A stretch of 23,990 nucleotides of DNA, taken from positions 1-23,990 of IMG/VR virus record IMGVR_UViG_2681813314_000025. One strand, written 5' to 3'. Positions 1-12,441 of this stretch are shown in pieces. Every line of letters begins with the position of its first letter. Position 1 is the stretch's first letter. The translations under genes and the position numbers were made by a program. The notes beneath the pieces were generated by a model that did not search any database, was not told where the DNA came from, and saw only the letters and a list, made by a program, of their open reading frames with translations. The DNA is from a virus (taxonomy: Duplodnaviria; Heunggongvirae; Uroviricota; Caudoviricetes).

Positions 1-1053
1 TTACGGGGTAATGCCAACCGCTGCCGCCACTTTGTCGCCACTTGGCAGCGTTGCCAGAGGATTGAAACGGAGCGCCGTTTCCAGATGATCTGGTGCCAGA
101 TGTGCGTAACGCATAGTCATTTTTATATCGTGGTGTCCGAGAATTTTTTGTAAGGCGAGAATGTTTCCACCCGACATCATGAAGTGCGCCGCAAATGTAT
201 GGCGCAGAACGTGTGTGAGTTGACCGCGAGGGAGCACGATAGACGTTTTTTCCATCACGGATAAAAATTGAAAATAGCAGTCTGTAAAGAAATTGAACCC
301 ATCAAGCGCCATGATCTCTTCGTAAAGCTCTTTACTGATAGGGATGCTTCTGTTTTTCTTCCCCTTCGTTCTGACAAAGGTAATTCGGTATTTGGTCACC
401 TGTGAGCGGGTAAGATTTACGGCTTCACGCCAGCGTGCGCCTGTGCTTAAGCATATCTTAACTACCAGTGCCAGAATCGGGTCCTGACGTTTACAATCAG
501 CCAGCAATTCAACAATCTGCTCATGGGTAAGCCATGCCATCTCTTTTTCTGCGATGGTGAATTTTCGCATGTTCTCCAGTGGGTTCGGATACGACCATTC
601 GCCCAGGCGGGATAGTTCGCTAAAAACACTACTAAGATAGCTTTGCTCCAGGTTAATAGTGACCGGGCTTGCTCCTTTTTTCCATTTCTCGCTGAAGTAG
701 ATCTCACCCGTCAGGCGTTTATCTCGATAGTGGGCAAACATTTTAGATGTGAGATCGGTTGCAAGGGGATTGCCCAGAGCGTCAACCATCAACAGCAATT
801 TGTCATAGACATGCTGCCCAGCGGTTAGAGCTTTACCATGTAGTTTGAACCATAGCTCAACTACGTCTTTCAGTGTTCGACGATCCACTGATTCACCCAG
901 CCAGGGCTTTGCTTCGGTTTCTTCCATCGTGTGGCGCTCAAAAGCCAGAGCTTCGCCTTTGGTGGCGAATTGTTTACGCACACGACGCCCACTACGTCCG
1001 GCGGGGTAACATTCGCAAAGCCATTTCCCTGTGGTGAGTTTTCGTACTGCCAT
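1..1053 (-). CDS. int: Tyrosine recombinase / phage integrase (P2/186 family)
   Basis: C-terminal motifs of tyrosine recombinases (..HVLRHTFAAHF.. and ..HHDIKMTMRYAHL.. with the catalytic Tyr). The likely start is the internal Met (MAVRKLTTGKWLCECY..) at 1053; the ORF track extends to 1209, but that upstream stretch is AT-rich and looks non-coding. The stop codon sits at the window edge. Confidence 0.85.
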   Translation of the reverse strand: MAVRKLTTGKWLCECYPAGRSGRRVRKQFATKGEALAFERHTMEETEAKPWLGESVDRRTLKDVVELWFKLHGKALTAGQHVYDKLLLMVDALGNPLATDLTSKMFAHYRDKRLTGEIYFSEKWKKGASPVTINLEQSYLSSVFSELSRLGEWSYPNPLENMRKFTIAEKEMAWLTHEQIVELLADCKRQDPILALVVKICLSTGARWREAVNLTRSQVTKYRITFVRTKGKKNRSIPISKELYEEIMALDGFNFFTDCYFQFLSVMEKTSIVLPRGQLTHVLRHTFAAHFMMSGGNILALQKILGHHDIKMTMRYAHLAPDHLETALRFNPLATLPSGDKVAAAVGITP

Positions 1054-1241
1054 AAAAAATGCCCTCCAGTAGAGAGCATTTTTACTGTATGTATAACCAG
1101 TGTCAATGTATGAAATCCTACGACCATACATCTCACTGAAGCCATAATGAAGTTGGCTATTCTTTTTGCTATGTGAGCATGTAACTTTTGCGGTTAACCT
1201 GCGGCTCATTTTTATTTTAGACGCAGATATAAAAGCAAAAG

Positions 1242-1433
1242 TTATCGTGAGTTTTTAGTACAGATTTTTTTGGATTTACTAATAGTTCCATCATTGCAAA
1301 CGAATTTGCCATCTGAGGTACAGTGAGAAACACCTCCCTTTTTCCCTGAGCAGGGATAATTTCTAGCATAGGTAGTTAGTGGGTTTAATAACAAAGAACA
1401 TGACAAAACCACAAAAAATACCTTACCAAGCAT
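1242..1433 (-). CDS. Small secreted cysteine-rich protein (63 aa: predicted signal peptide plus a ~40-aa mature region with 4 Cys); putative lysogeny-expressed moron
   Basis: N-terminal hydrophobic signal-like segment [23 protein letters not shown] followed by a Lys/Cys-rich region. A strong GGGAGGAAA Shine-Dalgarno lies 5 nt upstream of the ATG, and the gene starts 16 nt downstream of the cI stop, on the same strand between cI and int. The sequence is AT-rich. Confidence 0.5.
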
Positions 1434-1448
1434 AGTTTCCTCCCGGTA

Positions 1449-2105
1449 CTATTTAACATACTTGACTGTTAAACTTATAATTTTACCAATTATTTCAATG
1501 TCTTCTATCTTGCATTCGAAGGCTCTGTTTCCACCCTCGACGAAGATTCTTCCACCGGGTAAACGAGTAATGTCACGGATCGTTATTTCGCCATCAATAC
1601 TTATTACCCATTTACCATCACGTATATCATCAAATTCTTTATCACAAATAAATTCAGAATTGTTATCTGTGATGACAAAAGGTTTTTTAAACGTAGAGGG
1701 TAGAAATTCCTTATCAAAAATATAAAAACCGTCTTTCTGCAATGCTCCATCAGACAATAAATATTTTTCTACTTCTATAGTATTTGTATTTGCTGATGCT
1801 TGCTTTGAACCATGCCCTGTTGTTAGCCAATTAAGCGAGGTGCCCGTTTCAAGGGCGCACTGGATTACCCAATCTGCTGGAAAAATATCACGCATATAGC
1901 GCGTTGCCATGGTGCTCTTAGAAACACCTAAATGATCACAGAGAGCCTGACGGGTACCGAACCCATATGCTTCAACTAAACGTTCTATGGCTTTCTTACC
2001 GCCGCTATTGAAATCCACAAGTCCTCCAAAGAAATCCAAAATTCGTTGACAGATTCCAAAAGCGATCTTAAAGTTGAACCAGAAGTGTTCTTTTGGAGCC
2101 TTCAC
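1449..2105 (-). CDS. cI: Immunity repressor CI (phage 186 CI type; N-terminal HTH, C-terminal oligomerisation domain)
   Basis: The translation aligns by eye with recalled 186 CI (..EAYGF.., ..CALETG..L.WL.TG.G.., ..LPG..........FEC.I.DI...G..). It is oriented away from apl/cII, as in 186. Confidence 0.8.
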   Translation of the reverse strand: MKAPKEHFWFNFKIAFGICQRILDFFGGLVDFNSGGKKAIERLVEAYGFGTRQALCDHLGVSKSTMATRYMRDIFPADWVIQCALETGTSLNWLTTGHGSKQASANTNTIEVEKYLLSDGALQKDGFYIFDKEFLPSTFKKPFVITDNNSEFICDKEFDDIRDGKWVISIDGEITIRDITRLPGGRIFVEGGNRAFECKIEDIEIIGKIISLTVKYVK

Positions 2106-2163
2106 TACTAATCACGACAAACAACGGCTCGCCACAAGCCATATCTAGAAGGAATGTTGCCTT

Positions 2164-2367
2164 ATGACACCTAACATTTCAATTACTCTGAATACACCAC
2201 ATGTCACAATCGAACGTTATAGCGAACTGACTGGCCTTTCTATTGATACGATTAACGACATGTTGGCTGATGGCCGACTACCTCGTCATCGTCTTCGTAA
2301 AGACAAAAAACGTGAAAAGGTAATGATTAACCTGGCTGCTCTGACTGTTGATGCTTTGTCTGCTTAA
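2164..2367 (+). CDS. apl: Apl/Cox-like small HTH regulator (excisionase / lytic-switch repressor)
   Basis: A 67-aa basic protein that is the first gene of the rightward early operon, immediately upstream of cII; this is the position of 186 apl and P2 cox. An HTH-like segment ([19 protein letters not shown]) is present. Confidence 0.65.
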
Positions 2368-2431
2368 TAGACGTCTATTTTCGCAATAAGACGCTGAGTT
2401 CGATTTTGCGATAAGTTCGGAGTTGAAAACC

Positions 2432-2941
2432 ATGTTTGATTACCAAGTTTCCAAACATCCACATTTTGATGAAGCCTGTCGTGCATTTGCATTGCGCCAC
2501 AACTTGGTGCAACTGGCAGAACGTGCAGGTATGAATGTGCAGATTCTGCGGAACAAGCTGAATCCAGCTCAACCTCATTTATTAACCGCACCAGAAATTT
2601 GGTTGCTTACTGATCTGACAGAAGACTCAACACTGGTAGATGGTTTTCTGGCACAGATTCACTGCCTGCCATGTGTGCCGATTAATGAGGTGGCAAAAGA
2701 GAAACTGCCACATTACGTCATGAGTGCAACCGCAGAGATCGGGCGTGTTGCTGCAGGTGCGGTATCTGGCGATGTAAAAACCAGTGCAGGTCGTCGTGAT
2801 GCCATCAGCAGCATTAACTCTGTAACACGACTGATGGCGCTGGCTGCTGTTTCATTGCAGGCCCGTTTACAGGCTAACCCTGCGATGGCGAGTGCGGTTG
2901 ATACCGTAACTGGCCTCGGTGCTTCATTCGGTTTGCTGTGA
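2432..2941 (+). CDS. cII: Phage regulatory protein CII (186 CII family)
   Basis: Translation [40 protein letters not shown].. closely matches recalled 186 CII. Starting at the ATG at 2432 (GGAG 9 nt upstream) gives 169 aa, the same length as 186 CII; the track's TTG start at 2423 is less likely. Confidence 0.85.
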
Positions 2942-2948
2942 GGTGCTT

Positions 2949-3245
2949 ATGCTGTCGAAAGAACCATCATTTGCATCGCTGCTGGTAAAACAAAGCCCGG
3001 CAATGCACTACGGTCACGGCTGGATCACGGGTGAGGATGGAAAACGCTGGCATCCATGTCATTCACAAGATGAATTGCTGTCTGAATTGACCACGAGGAA
3101 ACGGAGAAAGTCCAAATGTATGCGGCAGAAAGTGAAATGGTTTATCAGTTTCGTTACAGAGGGGAGAGTTATTCAGTACCTGAAGATGATTTGCTCTGTT
3201 GCTATCCGTCATTGTCGGGCGATGGCAGTTACTTTTTCACGTTAA
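2949..3245 (+). CDS. Hypothetical early protein (98 aa); boundaries uncertain because its 3' part overlaps the next ORF
   Basis: The ATG at 2949 lies 8 nt after the cII stop, with AGGTG upstream. The last ~40 codons overlap ORF 3116-3340 in another frame and have an odd composition, so the 3' end may not be coding. Confidence 0.35.
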   Translation: MLSKEPSFASLLVKQSPAMHYGHGWITGEDGKRWHPCHSQDELLSELTTRKRRKSKCMRQKVKWFISFVTEGRVIQYLKMICSVAIRHCRAMAVTFSR

Positions 3246-3340
3246 AGGATGGGACGTTTTTACGGGGAGAGCAGGTTAAAGAGACGATACGAAAAAATGT
3301 ATCTCCTCTTGAGCGTTACCGTAAGAACAAAGAACGATAG
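3116..3340 (+). CDS. Hypothetical early protein (74 aa)
   Basis: GGAGAAAG Shine-Dalgarno about 8 nt upstream of the ATG, and a protein-like composition (MYAAESEMVYQFRYRGESYSVPEDD..). Confidence 0.5.
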   Translation: MYAAESEMVYQFRYRGESYSVPEDDLLCCYPSLSGDGSYFFTLKDGTFLRGEQVKETIRKNVSPLERYRKNKER

Positions 3341-3362
3341 CTGCGTTTGGGGGATATGAAGT

Positions 3363-3704
3363 ATGGCAATTAATGGCGCTGCAGCAACTGTTCCATTAAG
3401 CCCCGGTGAACGCCTGAATGGACTTAATCACATTGCGGAGTTAAGGGCGAAAGTTTTTGGCCTGAATATTGAGTCAGAGCTTGAGCGGTTTATTAAAGAT
3501 ATGCGTGATCCACGGGATATCAATAATGAACAAAATAAACGGGCACTGGCTGCCATATTCTTTATGGCAAAAATTCCAGCTGAACGTCATAGCATCAGCA
3601 TTAATGAGCTGACCACTGACGAAAAGCGGGAGCTGATTAAAGCAATGAATCATTTTCGTGCAGTGGTGAGCTTATTTCCCAGACGGCTAACCATGCCGAA
3701 TTAA
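3363..3704 (+). CDS. Hypothetical early protein (113 aa)
   Basis: ORF in the early operon with a GGGGGA-type purine-rich stretch upstream; no motif recognised. Confidence 0.55.
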   Translation: MAINGAAATVPLSPGERLNGLNHIAELRAKVFGLNIESELERFIKDMRDPRDINNEQNKRALAAIFFMAKIPAERHSISINELTTDEKRELIKAMNHFRAVVSLFPRRLTMPN

Positions 3705-4232: not shown

Positions 4233-5086
4233 GCACCATCCTGAAATGGGCGGGAAATAAAACCGCCATAATGTCCGAACTGAAAAAGCATCTTCCTGCT
4301 GGCCCGCGACTGGTTGAACCTTTCGCGGGTTCCTGTGCAGTGATGATGGAGACGGATTACCCCAGCTATCTTGTTGCGGATATTAATCCTGATTTAATCA
4401 ACCTCTATAAAAAGGTTGCTGCTGATTGTGAGGCGTTTATATCTCGTGCCAGAGCTTTATTTGAGGAAGCAAACAGGGAGGTGGCTTATTACAACATAAG
4501 GCAGGAGTTTAATTACTCCACTGAAATTACTGATTTCATGAAAGCGGTATATTTTCTGTATCTCAATCGTCATGGTTACCGTGGATTATGTCGCTATAAC
4601 AAGAGCGGGTATTTCAACATTCCCTACGGTAATTATAAAAATCCGTATTTCCCTGAAAAAGAAATTCGCGCATTTGCAGAGAAAGCCCAGCGGGCAACGT
4701 TTATCTGCGCCAGCTTTGATGAAACGCTGGCGATGTTGAAGGCGGGGGATGTGGTGTATTGCGATCCGCCGTATGACGGTACGTTTTCCGGCTATCACAC
4801 TGATGGTTTCACTGAAGATGACCAGTATCACCTGGCATCCGTTCTTGAACATCGGTCATCAGAAGGACATCCGGTCATTGTTTCTAACAGTGACACATCC
4901 CTGATCCGTTCGCTGTATCGCAATTTTACTCACCACTACATCAAGGCAAAACGCAGCATCGGTGTGGCAGCTGGTGATAGTAAATCTGCAACAGAAATCA
5001 TTGCTGTTTCCGGGGCGCGCTGCTGGGTGGGATTTGATCCTTCGCGTGGCGTAGATAGTTCTGCTGTGTACGAGGTGCGTGTATGA
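4229..5086 (+). CDS. dam: DNA N6-adenine methyltransferase, Dam/D12 class (probable GATC specificity)
   Basis: N-terminal ILKWAGNK plus the AdoMet motif EPFAGSCAV, and the catalytic DPPY motif ([12 protein letters not shown]). The start overlaps the upstream stop (ATGA). Confidence 0.85.
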
Positions 5087-7476
5087 GTCATGACGATATG
5101 AGCAACTCTAGCGGCTTTAACGAGGCCGCTGCATCATTTTCATGGAACGGCCCGAAAAAGGCCATTAACCCTTATCTGGACCCGGCGGAATTTGCGCCGG
5201 AGTCTGCACTTTCAAACCTGATCACTCTGTATGCTGCCGATAACGAGCAGGAACAACTGCGCCGCGAGGCACTGAGTGAGCAGGTCTGGGAGCGTTATTT
5301 CTTTAATGAATCCCGTGATCCTGTCCAGCGCGAAATGGAGCAGGATAAGCTCATTAGCCGGGCAAAGCTGGCGCATGAGCAGCAGCGTTTTAATCCAGAC
5401 ATGGTCATTCTGGCTGACGTCAACGCCCAGCCTTCCCATATCAGCAAGCCGCTGATGCAACGTATTGAATACTTCAGCAGTCTGGGCAGGCCAAAGGCTT
5501 ATTCCCGCTATTTGCGTGAGACGATTAAGCCATGTCTGGAAAGACTGGAGCATGTACGCGACAGTCAGCTATCCACTTCTTTTCGCTTTATGGCAAGCCA
5601 TGAAGGGCTGGACGGCCTGCTGATCCTGCCTGAAATGAGTCAGGATCAGGTAAAACGCCTGTCCACCCTGGTAGCAGCGCATATGAGCATGTGTCTTGAG
5701 GTCGCTTGTGGTGATTTGTATGCCACCGATGACGTTAAGCCAGAAGAAATCCGCAAGACATGGGAAAAGGTGGCGGCGGAAACCCTGCGACTGGATGTCA
5801 TACCGCCTGCGTTTGAGCAACTCCGCCGGAAAAGAAACCGCCGTAAACCCGTGCCCTATGAACTTATTCCGGGTTCGCTGGCGCGTATGTTGTGCGCCGA
5901 CTGGTGGTATCGGAAATTATGGAAGATGCGTAGCGAATGGCGGGAAGAGCAGTTGCGTGCTGTTTGCCTGGTCAGCAAAAAAGCATCTCCCTATGTCAGC
6001 TATGAAGCCGTGATGCATAAACGTGAGCAGCGCCGTAAGTCGCTGGAGTTTTTCCGTTCTCATGAACTGGTGAACGAAGACGGCGACACGCTGGATATGG
6101 AAGACGTGGTAAACGCCAGCAGCAGCAACCCTGCGCATCGCCGCAATGAGATGATGGCCTGTGTTAAAGGTCTGGAGCTTATCGCGGAAATGCGCGGTGA
6201 CTGCGCCGTTTTCTACACCATCACCTGTCCGTCACGTTTCCATTCCACGCTAAATAACGGCAGGCCAAACCCGACCTGGACCAACGCGACAGTAAGACAA
6301 AGCAGCGATTATCTGGTCGGCATGTTTGCTGCATTTCGTAAGGCTATGCACAAAGCCGGGTTGCGCTGGTATGGCGTGCGGGTGGCTGAGCCGCATCATG
6401 ACGGCACAGTTCACTGGCACCTGTTGTGTTTCATGCGCAAAAAAGACCGCCGCGCCATTACTGCATTGTTGCGTAAGTTTGCCATCCGTGAAGACCGCGA
6501 GGAGCTGGGCAATAACACGGGGCCACGCTTTAAGTCTGAGCTGATAAACCCGCGCAAAGGAACGCCGACAAGCTACATTGCGAAATATATCAGTAAGAAT
6601 ATTGACGGGCGTGGTCTGGCTGGCGAGATCAGTAAGGAAACGGGTAAATCCCTGCGTGATAACGCTGAATACGTTAATGCCTGGGCGTCTCTGCATCGTG
6701 TTCAGCAATTCCGCTTCTTTGGCATTCCGGGGCGTCAGGCTTACCGTGAACTGCGATTGCTGGCTGGTCAGGCGGCAAGGCAACAGGGGGACAAAAAAGC
6801 AGGTGCGCCGGTACTGGATAACCCGCGCCTTGATGCAATCCTGGCTGCTGCTGATGCTGGTTGTTTTGCCACTTACATCATGAAGCAGGGCGGCGTACTG
6901 GTTCCCCGCAAATATCACCTCATCAGAACTGCTTATGAAATTAACGAAGAGCCGACCGCCTATGGCGATCACGGCATTCGTATTTATGGCATCTGGTCAC
7001 CCATTGCAGAGGGCAAGATCTGCACTCATGCAGTGAAGTGGAAAATGGTTCGTAAAGCCGTTGACGTTCAGGAGGCGGTAGCCGACCAGGGCGCTTGCGC
7101 CCCTTGGACTCGTGGCAATAACTGTCCCCCTGTTGAAAATATGAACAAATCAGGGGGGGATTTACCCGATATTAAAACCATGGATGAGAAGGAGCTGCAG
7201 GAATATCTCCACAACATGGGCCAGAAGGAACGGCGGGAGCTGACAGCCAGGTTGAGACTGGTAAAACCGAAGCGAAAAAAAGCATACATACAGAGTATTT
7301 CGGAGCAGCAGCGCCTGCAGCTTGAGGCAGAACTGACTGCCAGAGGGTTTGAGGGTAGTGTATCTGAGATTGATTTGCTTCTGCGTGGCGGCAGCATTCC
7401 ATCCGGTGCCGGTTTACGTATTTTTTACCGTAAACAGAGGCTGCAGGAAGATGACAAATGGCGTCGATGGTACTAA
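5083..7476 (+). CDS. Replication initiation endonuclease (P2 gpA-type HUH rolling-circle initiator)
   Basis: 797 aa, carrying an HUH-like motif ([13 protein letters not shown]) and a paired-tyrosine motif ([10 protein letters not shown]) as in gpA/phiX174 A-type nickases. It sits between the early operon and the tum/DinI region, as in P2/186. Confidence 0.9.
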
Positions 7477-8247: not shown

Positions 8248-8292
8248 CTAGCTAATCCTGAATGTGGGTTAGTGGAAATTACAAGGAAATAT

Positions 8293-9474
8293 ATGAAACT
8301 GACTGAGCTAACTATAAACGGTATCGGGGGGATAAAGTCCCTGTACGTAAAATTTAGGCCTGACATGAATATTATATGTGGGCCTAACGGAGTTGGAAAA
8401 TCCACACTCTTGCTTGCTGCCTCCTTTCCTTTTCTTCATGGATACACTAATAGAATAAAACGCAATGTCACTTCTGAAACAGGAAGTGTTAGTCTAATAA
8501 TAGAAGATAATTCTGTTAACTTTAATTCAGTATTAGATGTTAACGTTCATTTGCCTACAGAAACAATTCACAACTTTAATAATAACGGATTTGATAAGAG
8601 GAAACTAATAAAATTTGAAATATTACGTAACTTTGATTATAAACATCTTGAGGCGTTGAATGCAGATAAATCACTATCCGATGATGCTGTTTCGCAACAG
8701 ATTAATTTAGGTGTCAATTTACATGATATCAAGGATTGGTTTGCTAAGAGGGATTTGTTTGAAAAAGTAGATAATGGTTACGGTCCTAATACGATAAAAA
8801 ATATACATCTTGCAAGGGAGTGTATATCAATTTTAAACCCTCAGTTTTCTTACAATCGCGTCGATCCTAAATCTTACGATATTTTTGTAAATACCCCGAC
8901 CGGGGTAATATGGTATGAATATCTGTCCTCGGGATTCAAATCATGTATGAGTCTCCTTCTCGGTATTATTAAAGAGATCGAGCTTCGTTATCCGGAGAAA
9001 GATATTTACGCCCAAGAATTTGATGGAGTGATTCTTATCGATGAAATTGAGCTTCATTTGCATCCTGAGTGGCAGGCAAGAATCACTGAAGCCCTTACGA
9101 CAACATTTCCATCAGCACAATTTATTGTCACAACTCACAGCCCACATGTAGTACAGAATGCAAAACCACATCAGATCATTGCGTTAGTACCAGATAATGA
9201 TGGCACAGTGAGAGTAAAAGAACTTCCTGAAAATGGCTTGGGTTATTCTGCCTGGACAGTTGAAGAGGTTTTGTTAGATGTAATGGGGATGGAAAGCACT
9301 CTCAGTAGAAAACTACAAGAACTACTTGATAATTTCGAACGTTTTGTTGATGAAGAAAATTTCGACAAGGCGAAAGAAATTTATGATTATTTGGATATGG
9401 CATTGCATCAAAACAGTATTCTTCGTAAATCTCTTAAAATAAGCCTGATGTCAATTCGAGAGAGAGAAGAGTAA
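8293..9474 (+). CDS. ABC/OLD-type (AAA_21-like) ATPase with no fused nuclease domain; PtuA-like
   Basis: Walker A GPNGVGKST near the N-terminus, an ABC-signature-like LSSGFKS, Walker B/D-loop ILIDEIELHLHP, and an H-loop (TTHSP). There is a long insertion between Walker A and B, as in OLD/Gabija/PtuA-class ATPases. ATG at 8293 with AAGGA upstream (the track's GTG at 8272 is less likely). AT-rich. Confidence 0.8.
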   Translation: MKLTELTINGIGGIKSLYVKFRPDMNIICGPNGVGKSTLLLAASFPFLHGYTNRIKRNVTSETGSVSLIIEDNSVNFNSVLDVNVHLPTETIHNFNNNGFDKRKLIKFEILRNFDYKHLEALNADKSLSDDAVSQQINLGVNLHDIKDWFAKRDLFEKVDNGYGPNTIKNIHLARECISILNPQFSYNRVDPKSYDIFVNTPTGVIWYEYLSSGFKSCMSLLLGIIKEIELRYPEKDIYAQEFDGVILIDEIELHLHPEWQARITEALTTTFPSAQFIVTTHSPHVVQNAKPHQIIALVPDNDGTVRVKELPENGLGYSAWTVEEVLLDVMGMESTLSRKLQELLDNFERFVDEENFDKAKEIYDYLDMALHQNSILRKSLKISLMSIREREE

Positions 9475-9475
9475 A

Positions 9476-10222
9476 ATGATTAAGCTTGAACGGAACTTTA
9501 TTCCTGATTTTTTTACTCGTGTTGATCTTCTATCTTTAACTCAGGAGTTTAAAGATAATGGAACATCTGTTTGGCATCATCCGGAAGTAAAATCGGCATG
9601 TCTAAAATTAAGTAATGGCAAATGTGCATTTTGTGAGGTCAAGCTTGAAGAGGCTAGCACCTATAATGAAATTGAGCATTTTAAGGATAAAAAAAATTTC
9701 CCTGATGATGTTATTAGATGGGAAAATCTCCTTCCTTCATGCCGTCACTGTAATGGTTCAAAACAACGCCATAATGTTGTACTCAATCCTATAATAAATC
9801 CATGCAACGATTTACCGTCAGAACACCTTTATATGATAGGGTATCGTATTAAAGGTAAAACTGATTTAGGTAAAACAACAGTGGATGTTTTAAACTTTAA
9901 TCACAGGGAGCACAAGTTTATACCGCGTTGTAAAGCAGGGGAACTTATAGATAGCAGTATTGATGACGCAATAGAAAAACTTAATTGGTTTAATGAGAAT
10001 CCAAGTACTAGACGTAAAAACATTCTTATGAATCTAGTCGAGGCAATATTAGGTGAGTGTCAGAAAACATCTCCCTTTTCTGCAGTATCAGCAACAATGC
10101 TTCATCGTTCAGTCGAATATTCTTATCTGAAAGAAACCATGCAGATGCAAGGATTATGGTCAGATTATATGCAGGAACTTCATGATGAATCTTTGAGCCT
10201 GACGTTACCGTCAATTCGCTAG
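9476..10222 (+). CDS. HNH endonuclease (PtuB-like)
   Basis: Classic zinc-coordinated HNH finger: CAFCE..(12)..EIEHF ... WENLLPSCRHCNGSK. The start is 1 nt after the ATPase stop, so the two are translationally coupled. Confidence 0.8.
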   Translation: MIKLERNFIPDFFTRVDLLSLTQEFKDNGTSVWHHPEVKSACLKLSNGKCAFCEVKLEEASTYNEIEHFKDKKNFPDDVIRWENLLPSCRHCNGSKQRHNVVLNPIINPCNDLPSEHLYMIGYRIKGKTDLGKTTVDVLNFNHREHKFIPRCKAGELIDSSIDDAIEKLNWFNENPSTRRKNILMNLVEAILGECQKTSPFSAVSATMLHRSVEYSYLKETMQMQGLWSDYMQELHDESLSLTLPSIR

Positions 10223-10696: not shown

Positions 10697-11395
10697 ATGG
10701 TTATGTTAGTGGATGACTGTCCACGATGTGGATCACAAAAAATAGCGTTTGATGTTAATGGGCTGAATTGCACTAGGGTTTACAATGCATTGGGCGGGGG
10801 TAAAACATACGAGTACGAGGTCTATTGTGTTTGCCGAGAGTGTCATAAAACGACAATGTTTCTTTGCAGACCTTTAACGAAAAATAAAACTTTAGATGGC
10901 TATAATTGGGAAAGTGGAATATTCGGCTTAAAGGAAGTTGCAGAGGTTGTTAGGCCTATATCACCGGCAGACTTAGCAGTAGAGGAGCCACCAGAGTTCT
11001 TACCTGAGCATATCAATAGTGCATATGAGGAAGGGGCGAAATGTTTGGCTATAGGTTGTTATAATGCAGCAGCAACCATGTTTAGGCTTTGCCTTGATTA
11101 TGCCACAAAAGGACTTCTTCCTGATGGGGAGCAAGGGCCTGCGCAAAAAATAAGGAGAAGCCTAGGGTTAAGAATGGAGTGGTTATTTGATAATCATCTA
11201 CTGCCTGAAGCTTTAAGGGAACTAGCTGAATGCGTTAAAGATGACGGAAATGATGGAGCGCATGAAGGTATTTTGGATAAAGCTGCTGCTGAGGATCTTG
11301 AAGATTTTACCTATCTTTTTTTAGAACGGCTTTACACTGAACCTCAACGCCTTATCGAAGCCAAGACAAGGCGTGAACAAAGAAGAAACAAATAA
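10697..11395 (+). CDS. Zinc-ribbon protein with a DUF4145-like C-terminal helical domain (232 aa); cargo gene of unknown function
   Basis: N-terminal CPRCGS ... CVCRECH cysteine cluster. The C-terminal region has the R...L / GNDGAHE pattern I associate with DUF4145. Strong RBS AGGGAGGAG. It lies between candidate cos and the portal gene, converging on the portal stop with only 8 bp between stops. Confidence 0.65.
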   Translation: MVMLVDDCPRCGSQKIAFDVNGLNCTRVYNALGGGKTYEYEVYCVCRECHKTTMFLCRPLTKNKTLDGYNWESGIFGLKEVAEVVRPISPADLAVEEPPEFLPEHINSAYEEGAKCLAIGCYNAAATMFRLCLDYATKGLLPDGEQGPAQKIRRSLGLRMEWLFDNHLLPEALRELAECVKDDGNDGAHEGILDKAAAEDLEDFTYLFLERLYTEPQRLIEAKTRREQRRNK

Positions 11396-11403
11396 GTTCG
11401 GAA

Positions 11404-12441
11404 TTATTCTTCTGAAAGAATATAGGGCGTAAATTTAATCACTTCTTCGCCCAGCCAGTCGTTCAGCTCTTGTAGCCTTTTTTGCAAGGGCGTTAATTCA
11501 TTACGTACAAATACGCGACTGGCCTTCTCCACATCCCCAAACCCCCCGACATTATTAGGCATTATCCCCATCATTTGTGGCGGCACACGATGCGCCGCCA
11601 TCATGTCGTCCCGGCTCACGTTCTTGATATTCAGGAACTCATCCTTCGCCGCCACTTCTGACAACGGGATAATCTGAAGCCCGTCCTTTTTACCGTTAGG
11701 CGAGTACATAAACAGGTTACGGAAGTTACCAGGACCTTTGGCGCTTTTCATCGCATTGCGGAGGTTGTTCACATCCTCCTGGTTCTGCGCTGCATCGGTC
11801 ATGTACATGATGAAGCCTGCATGACTGCCGTTAATGTAATACTTGCGGCGGAACAGCGTGGCGGACTCGTTGAGCAGAGCTGACGGAATGGCAGAAAGAT
11901 AACCAGGCAGGCCGTAGATCTCCTGGTTGATGTCCGGTTCCATCAGATGAAAAATGTTGCCTTTCGTGAACTGATACGGCTGTGTAGTCATGCCGTATTG
12001 CACAAACCAGTAGGTATCAAGGTCTAACCCGCGTCGGGTGTATTTTGCCAGTGCAGGCTCAAGGGCGATAACTTCACCGAAGCGGTTCGTGCGTTTCTCC
12101 AGGTAGGCGTTACCAAAAACCAGATAGTCCTGTACAAAACGCGAAAAAGCCTGCTGGCTGAGCAGCGGGTGAGGGATGTAGGTGCTGGTCAGAATGTTGC
12201 ACTTCACTGCAATCGGTGAGCTGTGATGCACGGCGGCGCGGAAGGTTCGCGCCAGTCCGTCGAAACTCACAGGCGGCTCGTACCAACGATCCATCTGTAC
12301 GCATTCCACATAGTCCAGCAGTTCGCGGCGGTCCAGAACAGGAACGGGATCACCGAAGCTGAATGCTTCGGCTGAAGTCTGGCTTTTATGCTGGATCTGT
12401 TTCGTCGACGCAGCGCGGTTCTTCTTACTCTTTCCCATCAA
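11404..12441 (-). CDS. Phage portal protein (P2 gpQ family)
   Basis: 345 aa (P2 Q is ~344 aa), immediately downstream of and 4-nt-overlapped by the terminase gene on the same strand, adjacent to cos. Confidence 0.9.
   Translation of the reverse strand: MMGKSKKNRAASTKQIQHKSQTSAEAFSFGDPVPVLDRRELLDYVECVQMDRWYEPPVSFDGLARTFRAAVHHSSPIAVKCNILTSTYIPHPLLSQQAFSRFVQDYLVFGNAYLEKRTNRFGEVIALEPALAKYTRRGLDLDTYWFVQYGMTTQPYQFTKGNIFHLMEPDINQEIYGLPGYLSAIPSALLNESATLFRRKYYINGSHAGFIMYMTDAAQNQEDVNNLRNAMKSAKGPGNFRNLFMYSPNGKKDGLQIIPLSEVAAKDEFLNIKNVSRDDMMAAHRVPPQMMGIMPNNVGGFGDVEKASRVFVRNELTPLQKRLQELNDWLGEEVIKFTPYILSEE

Follow-up and report, generated by a model that had tools for sequence, protein, structure and literature searches.

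A YdcA-family gene between the cI repressor and integrase genes of a 186/P2-like prophage

The ydcA gene of E. coli K-12 lies between cybB and hokB and encodes a protein of 57 amino acids (aa) with a signal sequence, which is predicted to be periplasmic (PMC11340327). Deletion of ydcA rendered E. coli W sensitive to 300 mM 3-hydroxypropionate, and the gene is reported to be acid-induced through YdcI (PMC7642389). A member of the same family is described here from the IMG/VR virus record IMGVR_UViG_2681813314_000025. Positions 1 to 23,990 of that record, the whole stretch analysed and hereafter called the window, represent a 186/P2-like prophage with 95% identity over 80% of its length to the Klebsiella phages Kp4860-7 and 4LV2017; E. 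coli copies of this prophage are integrated beside rcdA. The window gene is located in the phage lysogeny operon, between the repressor gene cI and the integrase gene int, whereas ydcA of K-12 is chromosomal. Both proteins have the same layout, a signal peptide followed by a core of ~35 aa with four cysteines, but the window protein is of the prophage sub-type PRK10040.1-2, unlike that of K-12. The two genes match at the DNA level by 78% over 87 nucleotides (nt), and the number of nonsynonymous substitutions per nonsynonymous site (dN) between the core and the chromosomal copy is 0.185.

The same slot, between cI and int in the PL lysogenic operon of a Peduoviridae genome, is occupied in Vibrio phage K139 by glo, annotated as encoding a periplasmic protein involved in phage exclusion (GenBank note; PMC4870250). 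Glo is unrelated in sequence to the window protein (hhalign probability 4%): it has 137 aa, only two cysteines and no basic character, whereas the window protein has 63 aa, is basic and carries four cysteines in its mature part. The exclusion phenotype of Glo is reportedly owed to Nesper et al. 1999, J Bacteriol 181:2902. By analogy of position, Glo may offer the best functional guide to a possible role of the window gene in exclusion of superinfecting phage or of entering DNA.

A further comparison is provided by Legionella Dis2 (Lpg0823), which was observed on the outer-membrane face of the Dot/Icm cap (PMC8486379, PMC12716638) and is treated as Legionella-specific (PMC12716638). Dis2 is the only solved structure found to resemble the YdcA domain, each of its two lobes carrying a CSKMGG...C...VCNxG-like motif. 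The full-length profile retrieved it from among PDB sequences (7MUC chain AN, E = 2.3e-4), and it was the top Foldseek match (probability 0.95-0.97, 38-39% identity over 37-38 columns, template-modelling score 0.40, E ~0.1). With the profile deprived of the signal peptide, Dis2 scored E = 0.044, level with low-density-lipoprotein (LDL) receptor class A repeats, which lowers the trust to be placed in the link; the repeats themselves were taken as a coincidence of cysteine spacing. Like the window protein, Dis2 is small, disulfide-pinned and exported (PMC8486379). Unlike it, Dis2 is a two-lobed component of a secretion machine, with five disulfides and without the SxSKK motif; type IV secretion system genes are absent here. 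A relationship between Dis2 and YdcA, judged from the profile and fold matches, is plausible but unproven. Foldseek against the viral structures of BFVD gave nothing below E = 0.8.

An exported YdcA-family protein encoded after cI

The gene is an open reading frame (ORF) on the minus strand (Table 1), and its Shine-Dalgarno sequence is kept in 5/5 of the E. coli prophage copies aligned. An initial annotation, made from the letters, had placed a small secreted peptide gene in 1210-1448; the ORF does lie there but is narrower (1242-1433), since that interval also includes 32 nt on the 3' side and the spacer between cI and the ORF. The strong Shine-Dalgarno was borne out as GGGAGG, and 15 nt separate the cI stop codon (TAG, 1449-1451) from the start (ATG, 1431-1433). 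The genuine 63-aa ORF with a signal-peptide-like N-terminus and a Lys-rich mature part, as first described, agrees both with the family hidden Markov models (HMMs) and with coding-type substitutions. The four cysteines assigned to the mature part are indeed found there (C28, C38, C46 and C58), and a fifth, nonconserved one (Cys12) is present in the signal peptide.

Homology searches place the product in the catalogued YdcA family (NF007463, PHROG 6000, PF27300), so that the idea of a novel peptide was not upheld. Residues 5-63 matched NCBIfam NF007463 (PRK10040.1-2) over model positions 1-58 of 58 with 115.8 bits against a curated cut-off of 93, and the model of the chromosomal K-12 sub-type, PRK10040.1-1, gave 68.5 bits, under its cut-off of 118. 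PHROG 6000 was matched at E = 1.9e-34, and the E-values of the family HMMs were 5e-34 and 2e-34. The identical coding sequence (CDS) in E. coli genomes is RefSeq WP_000900883.1, 'YdcA family protein'. In fact, Pfam PF27300 'YdcA' is precomputed on near-identical as well as distant homologues of the window protein, while the Pfam release that was scanned predates this entry and returned only a sub-threshold GULLO2-like_3rd match. At the level of sequence the object is already known, since the family is catalogued and named. A word-indexed search with the domain profile yielded 841 clusters at 90% identity, and an exhaustive profile search 450 representatives at 50% identity. In most members the domain begins at residue 22-39, and the core of ~35 aa reads PCSGxKGG(V/I)SHC...GKFVCNDG(S/T)xSxSKKxC with four cysteines; all invariant or near-invariant columns are found in the window protein. 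The UniRef cluster name 'Conjugal transfer protein' found no support in any genomic context examined, the plasmid and gonococcal-island gene named 'ydcA' in the literature is an unrelated methylase, and a match to the lpg1681 family (NCBIfam, E = 0.11) was too weak for use.

The N-terminus shows the n-h-c layout of a signal peptide, with a hydropathy maximum of 2.8 over residues 5-15, Thr at -3 and Ala at -1. This Ala is found in at least 90% of 38 aligned homologues, and the remainder of the segment is not conserved. Sec-type export is predicted, with cleavage after Ala23 and a strongly basic, periplasmic mini-domain of 40 residues as the product. The mature part contains 7 Lys and 2 Arg against 2 Asp, giving a net charge of +7, and residues 31-60 were modelled by AlphaFold2 with a predicted local distance difference test score of 84-91. 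The four invariant cysteines are probably paired in two disulfides, by analogy with Dis2, which is fully disulfide-bonded. A lipoprotein is unlikely: no lipobox is conserved, Cys12 sits in the middle of the hydrophobic core (VLSC), and the signal segments of homologues end in AxA-like sites. Likewise, the lipobox with an invariant Cys at +1 that characterizes superinfection exclusion lipoproteins of the Cor/Llp/Ltp type was not found in the window protein.

Conservation is concentrated in the mature domain. Residues P27, K32, C38, F44, C46, G49, S52, S54, K55 and C58 are invariant in the 38 aligned homologues. Nei-Gojobori counts over the 34-codon mature core, taken against the window copy, gave synonymous/nonsynonymous differences of 21/2 for another E. 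coli prophage variant, 20.5/1.5 for the Enterobacter copy, 16/4 for the Yersinia copy and 8/0 for the BL21 copy. Synonymous sites of the core are saturated while its dN is 0.00-0.05; in the signal peptide, the ratio of dN to the synonymous rate is 0.15-1. The mature core is under extreme purifying selection and the signal peptide drifts almost freely. The 34-residue core is nearly frozen from Escherichia to Yersinia and is ~75% identical in phages of Haemophilus, Moraxella and Acinetobacter. A spurious ORF in a non-coding cI-int spacer might be suspected from the shortness and AT-richness of the ORF and from an overlapping 50-aa ORF in another frame (1217-1369, minus strand), which has no family match. 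The substitution pattern rules out such a spacer and marks the mature peptide as the constrained part. Furthermore, the curated HMMs are matched above cut-off, homologue clusters number in the hundreds, and in 38 of 40 rows sampled across the ranking of E. coli matches the match falls on a CDS annotated beside cI. The spurious-ORF reading is refuted by these observations, and its remaining chance is negligible. The initial annotation had held that an ORF disrupted in relatives while the interval is kept would indicate a spacer; among six E. coli loci one was broken, by an IS5 element.

Table 1. Coordinates of the cI-int region and of the defence genes in the window
Feature	Position	Strand	Description and basis
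ydcA-family gene	1242..1433	-	63 codons + TAA stop; ORF list, NCBIfam/PHROG matches, identical RefSeq CDS
Shine-Dalgarno GGGAGG	1439..1444	-	5 nt before ATG of the ydcA-family ORF; read from sequence
Signal peptide, residues 1-23 (predicted)	1365..1433	-	MLGK, hydrophobic core, TYA before the predicted cleavage site (TYA/RN)
Mature domain, 40 aa (predicted)	1245..1364	-	4.3 kDa, pI 9.7, four Cys
cI repressor, 186 type	1449..2018 (RefSeq start)	-	Directly upstream of the ydcA-family gene; Pfam Phage_CI_repr 3e-31, Phage_CI_C 4e-29
Integrase, P2/186 type	1..1053	-	Downstream gene; Pfam Int_N 5e-32, Phage_integrase 7e-22
Long hairpin beginning at the ydcA stop	1182..1244	-	Inverted repeat I2, 15-nt arms, 87% complementary; in minimum-free-energy fold
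Hairpin AAAAAUGCUCUC / GAGGGCAUUUUU	1055..1083	-	Inverted repeat I4, 92% complementary; 13-bp stem in fold
PtuA	8272-9474	+	PADLOC PDLC00305, E = 1e-151
PtuB	9476-10222	+	PADLOC PDLC00342, E = 2e-95

The upstream gene corresponds to the 189-aa 'phage repressor protein CI' of RefSeq, its open frame running on to 2105, and the downstream gene to the 350-aa phage integrase of RefSeq, whose start at 1053 is 188 nt past the ydcA-family stop. Because cI and the ydcA-family gene share one orientation and are separated by the 15-nt gap, and because no promoter-like or terminator-like site was found between them on the minus strand, co-transcription is the natural reading. From this gene arrangement we infer that the ydcA-family gene is the second gene of the lysogenic cI operon and is translated from the cI message, in which case its product should be made whenever repressor is made. 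That the gene is real, belongs to the YdcA family, encodes an exported protein and holds this operon position is, as a joint claim, highly likely.

The linkage to the repressor extends well beyond the window. The segment 1132-1520 was found in 665 of 5426 complete E. coli genomes (~12%), in 590 of them at 80% coverage or more, and the carriers include ST131-type O25b:H4 and laboratory BL21 strains. In all sampled P2/186-like contexts the repressor gene and, downstream of it, the ydcA-family gene share one strand. The latter is found beside cI variants of 187 and 189 aa in E. coli prophages, after a cI of 204 aa in Enterobacter and likewise downstream of the repressor in Yersinia; in the P2-like prophages of Comamonas and Chitiniphilus the repressors are of the HTH_3 type. 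The repressor is directly adjacent in all the P2-like contexts sampled except that of Chitiniphilus, in which hicA, hicB and a 150-aa ORF lie between. Haemophilus phages HP2 and S2 have an intact, unannotated copy with a signal peptide between cI and orf1(S), and the next gene in HP2 encodes a secreted OB-fold (tRNA_anti-like) protein. The insert of the initial annotation is neither private nor recent, as the same arrangement is widespread; judged from these sequences, the repressor-YdcA linkage is old and recurs in Gamma- and Betaproteobacteria. Elsewhere, chromosomal members include, besides ydcA of E. coli, a conserved locus in Moraxella bovoculi, and plasmid copies occur in Acinetobacter, Rhizobium and others, on replicons as small as 4-5 kb among them. 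What may be new is the consistent repressor-YdcA linkage in Peduoviridae-type prophages, together with the missed HP2/S2 copies, the nuclease fusions described below and the possible kinship to Dis2.

Some prophages with the gene are reduced or differently organized. A defective prophage of E. coli BL21-AI (positions 406-3387 of the segment taken from NZ_CP047231) has retained cI, int and a ydcA-family gene of 92% identity, and in it a truncated cII is joined to a truncated replication gene. In prophages of Acinetobacter and Moraxella the YdcA gene occupies an accessory slot of the tail module and is not beside the repressor. In Acinetobacter prophages (genes at ~5001-5600 of the A. baumannii segments examined), a gene for a tail-anchored DUF4236 protein with a C-terminal transmembrane segment lies 3' of the YdcA gene, at a distance of 9 nt in three contexts, ~12 nt in another and 92 nt in the fifth. 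The pair lies in the stretch from the tail tube gene to the tape-measure gene, where toxin-antitoxin and further accessory genes are also located, and may be a two-gene module. In Moraxella phage Mcat15 the YdcA gene is followed by a gene for an N-terminally anchored membrane protein.

A secreted-peptide gene directly beside the lysis-lysogeny regulator brings to mind an arbitrium-like peptide that would report lysogen density to the switch. Such a peptide is extremely improbable here: the mature sequence is nearly identical across cI variants and genera and so carries no phage-specific information, the product is a folded disulfide domain of 40 aa rather than a short oligopeptide made by processing, a receptor gene is absent, and the family is also chromosomal, plasmid-borne and fused to enzymes.

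A candidate polyanion-binding mini-domain and its possible roles

The reading tentatively preferred, and held with confidence well short of even, is that the mini-domain binds an extracytoplasmic polyanion, most likely nucleic acid, and serves as a lysogen-expressed exclusion or host-modifying factor. A model is proposed in which the YdcA-type mini-domain would bind, in the periplasm, a conserved polyanionic ligand of the cell envelope, nucleic acid being the likeliest. Its target in a lysogen would be DNA on its way in through the periplasm, whether from superinfecting phage or as transforming or conjugating DNA, and the outcome would be exclusion of such DNA or modification of the host. The evidence comes from charge, domain partners and gene neighbours. 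The mean net charge over 187 family domains is +3.9, below the value of the window protein. Among the 50 longest of the representatives from the exhaustive search, the only enzymatic partners were secreted nucleases (three Endonuclease_NS, one SNase and one PLD/Nuc-like), and 4/4 of the nuclease fusions whose sequence was read have the order signal peptide, YdcA domain, nuclease. In other members two or three YdcA domains are arrayed in tandem with Ser/Lys-rich linkers, and the 120 matches listed by the domain-only word-indexed search are all stand-alone proteins of ~58 aa. The nuclease fusions, the positive charge and the OB-fold neighbour in HP2 together point to an extracytoplasmic polyanion-binding module, for which nucleic acid is the most specific candidate.

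A separate architecture was noticed in three family members of ~105 aa, of metagenomic or betaproteobacterial origin, which carry a second small, cysteine-rich and basic domain at the C-terminus. This second domain reads CPCS...LCTGPRGGKYCIT..G.K.Y and gave a weak Pfam PBCV_basic_adap match (best E 1e-4).

Several points weigh against polyanion binding with an exclusion role. That lysogens express the gene is concluded solely from the way the genes are arranged, and the tail-module placement in Acinetobacter and Moraxella means that linkage to lysogeny control is not universal. The nuclease fusions are rare, ~5 of ~230 sequences, and would equally fit a domain for anchoring at the cell surface or outer membrane. 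Among the defence models of PADLOC-DB 2.0, 0 families matched the window protein at E <= 0.001. To our knowledge, E. coli is not noted for efficient natural transformation. In addition, the tentative relative Dis2 contacts DotC, DotD and DotK at the outer-membrane face and not DNA (PMC8486379, PMC12716638), and chromosomal ydcA has been linked to acid and 3-hydroxypropionate tolerance and not to phage or DNA (PMC7642389).

These last two points lead to an alternative, which is credible though on balance unlikely, that the product is an envelope-associated host-fitness factor. The domain would bind a protein of the outer membrane or periplasm, a lipid or a lipopolysaccharide head-group and alter envelope properties such as acid or organic-acid tolerance or the function of a secretion machine; the gene would then bring about lysogenic conversion to the benefit of the host and would not serve to block other DNA. 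Kinship to the Dis2 lobes, if real, favours this role, with the profile and Foldseek matches given above, and so do the occurrence of ydcA on the E. coli chromosome with its reported deletion phenotype in E. coli W and its acid induction via YdcI (PMC7642389). The neighbours in other prophages are membrane-anchored or secreted proteins, and a basic domain could bind anionic lipid head-groups. On the other hand, the invariant SxSKK motif is absent from the Dis2 lobes, the nuclease fusions are explained less directly, and a core that hardly varies between widely differing hosts speaks for a universal ligand and not for a host-specific protein partner.

A small secreted product with a charge of +7 and four cysteines, from a family found also on plasmids of 4-5 kb, could further be taken for a cationic, disulfide-rich antimicrobial or bacteriocin-like peptide released by lysogens against competitors. 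This is very unlikely. No adjacent immunity gene, dedicated exporter or lysis gene was seen in any context examined, and Sec export by itself leaves the product in the Gram-negative periplasm; moreover, the chromosomal copy is a normal E. coli gene, and the nuclease fusions and tandem arrays point to a binding module, not to a pore former. The toxin-like role listed among the first candidates for this gene is disfavoured on the same grounds, no immunity or export partner being present and a paralogue residing on the chromosome of E. coli K-12.

Returning to polyanion binding, its boldest form holds that the YdcA domain is an unrecognised extracytoplasmic DNA-binding mini-domain, that the stand-alone copies in the repressor operons of P2/186-like prophages capture periplasmic DNA and that the Dis2 lobes are divergent members; in this full form the proposal is distinctly doubtful. 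If true, it would define a new class of repressor-linked exclusion factors against superinfecting phage DNA or DNA taken up, and with the Dis2 lobes in the family the Dis2 domain would not be Legionella-specific as currently stated. Tight conservation in an operon that every lysogen expresses suggests that the protein likely matters to lysogens. Should DNA binding or an entry block be true, the protein would be a very small and very common player in phage-phage competition and horizontal gene transfer. Should an envelope effect be true, it would be a widespread lysogenic-conversion factor, the gene standing beside a prophage repressor in ~1/8 of complete E. coli genomes.

Hairpins and the int leader

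The interval between the ydcA-family gene and int folds strongly (221-nt fold, z = -6.1) and contains two hairpins (Table 1). The first, starting at the ydcA stop, has no U-tract after it on the minus strand and is conserved in the copies of BL21-AI and avian pathogenic E. coli (APEC); it may serve as a 3' end, in transcript stability or as a weak terminator. The second stops a single base short of the int AUG and includes the Shine-Dalgarno of int. It is part of the int leader, which is 96% identical in phages with other cargo, and is not part of the cargo itself. Since the int Shine-Dalgarno is buried in this hairpin, read-through of the cI-ydcA transcript could be terminated or untranslatable for int; the hairpin may thus act as a terminator or translational block that ends or silences the cI-ydcA transcript before int. 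A promoter-like sequence, TTGACA-17-AAAAAT, lies at 1106-1078 on the minus strand with its -10 element inside the left arm of the same hairpin, and a transcript starting from it would lack that arm. One reading of this layout is that the maintenance transcript would end as cI-ydcA while int would be under its own control. The scan for promoter-like sites gave 3, against 3.8 expected from shuffled sequence, and from a plus-strand site at 1453-1481 no conclusion was drawn, the scan being no richer than shuffled sequence. An Rfam scan of positions 900-2500 of the window gave nothing near gathering score.

The cI-int junction and neighbouring accessory genes

The cI and int genes of phage 186 have 1 nt in common, which agrees with the adjacency stated in the initial annotation. 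Close relatives of the window are 96% identical to it in int and in 60-80 nt of the int leader and have other genes between cI and int: vB_EcoM-813R9 carries a 558-aa ATPase at this place and Klebsiella 4LV2017 a 349-aa hypothetical protein. Such variation or absence of cargo among related phages identifies the junction as a cargo site. In some E. coli prophages (five loci), a gene for a 443-aa KAP-family P-loop NTPase was observed between the ydcA-family gene and int, so the junction can hold stacked cargo. A defence hotspot between cI and int was described in Vibrio K139-like phages (Rousset et al., PMC9122126), and for P2-like phages a hotspot reaching from int to primase is included in a survey of 2026 (PMC13586616).

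The gene was first taken for a lysogenic-conversion moron. Its presence or absence among close relatives (186, vB_EcoM-813R9, 4LV2017) agrees with a moron as Hendrix and colleagues use the term, for an accessory gene unit of a prophage, and, as with morons, the junction is an accessory site varying between phages otherwise 95% identical. Unlike morons, the ydcA-family gene has no promoter of its own and a doubtful terminator, and it rides on the cI transcript; unlike typical cargo of P2-like hotspots, it shows a stable association with the repressor in distant hosts. In base composition the ORF, with 35% GC, is below the window (51%), but the value is 38% for the adjacent cI, with a low of 29% in the 3' half of that gene, and 36-37% for the int-side flanks. 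Because low GC is common to ORF, cI and int-side flank, the whole immunity module is AT-rich and not the ORF by itself, contrary to the view of an AT-rich insert distinct from cI.

The window also harbours accessory genes at the classical P2 hotspot (gpA-gpQ), which is bounded by replication gene A (5083-7476) on one side and by the portal gene (11404-12441, minus strand) on the other. A complete Septu system, 8272-10222 on the plus strand, was found there (Table 1). Beside it, in the same hotspot, positions 10697-11395 of the plus strand encode a DUF4145 protein of 232 aa, which PADLOC matched weakly to PD-T7-4 (E = 1e-6).

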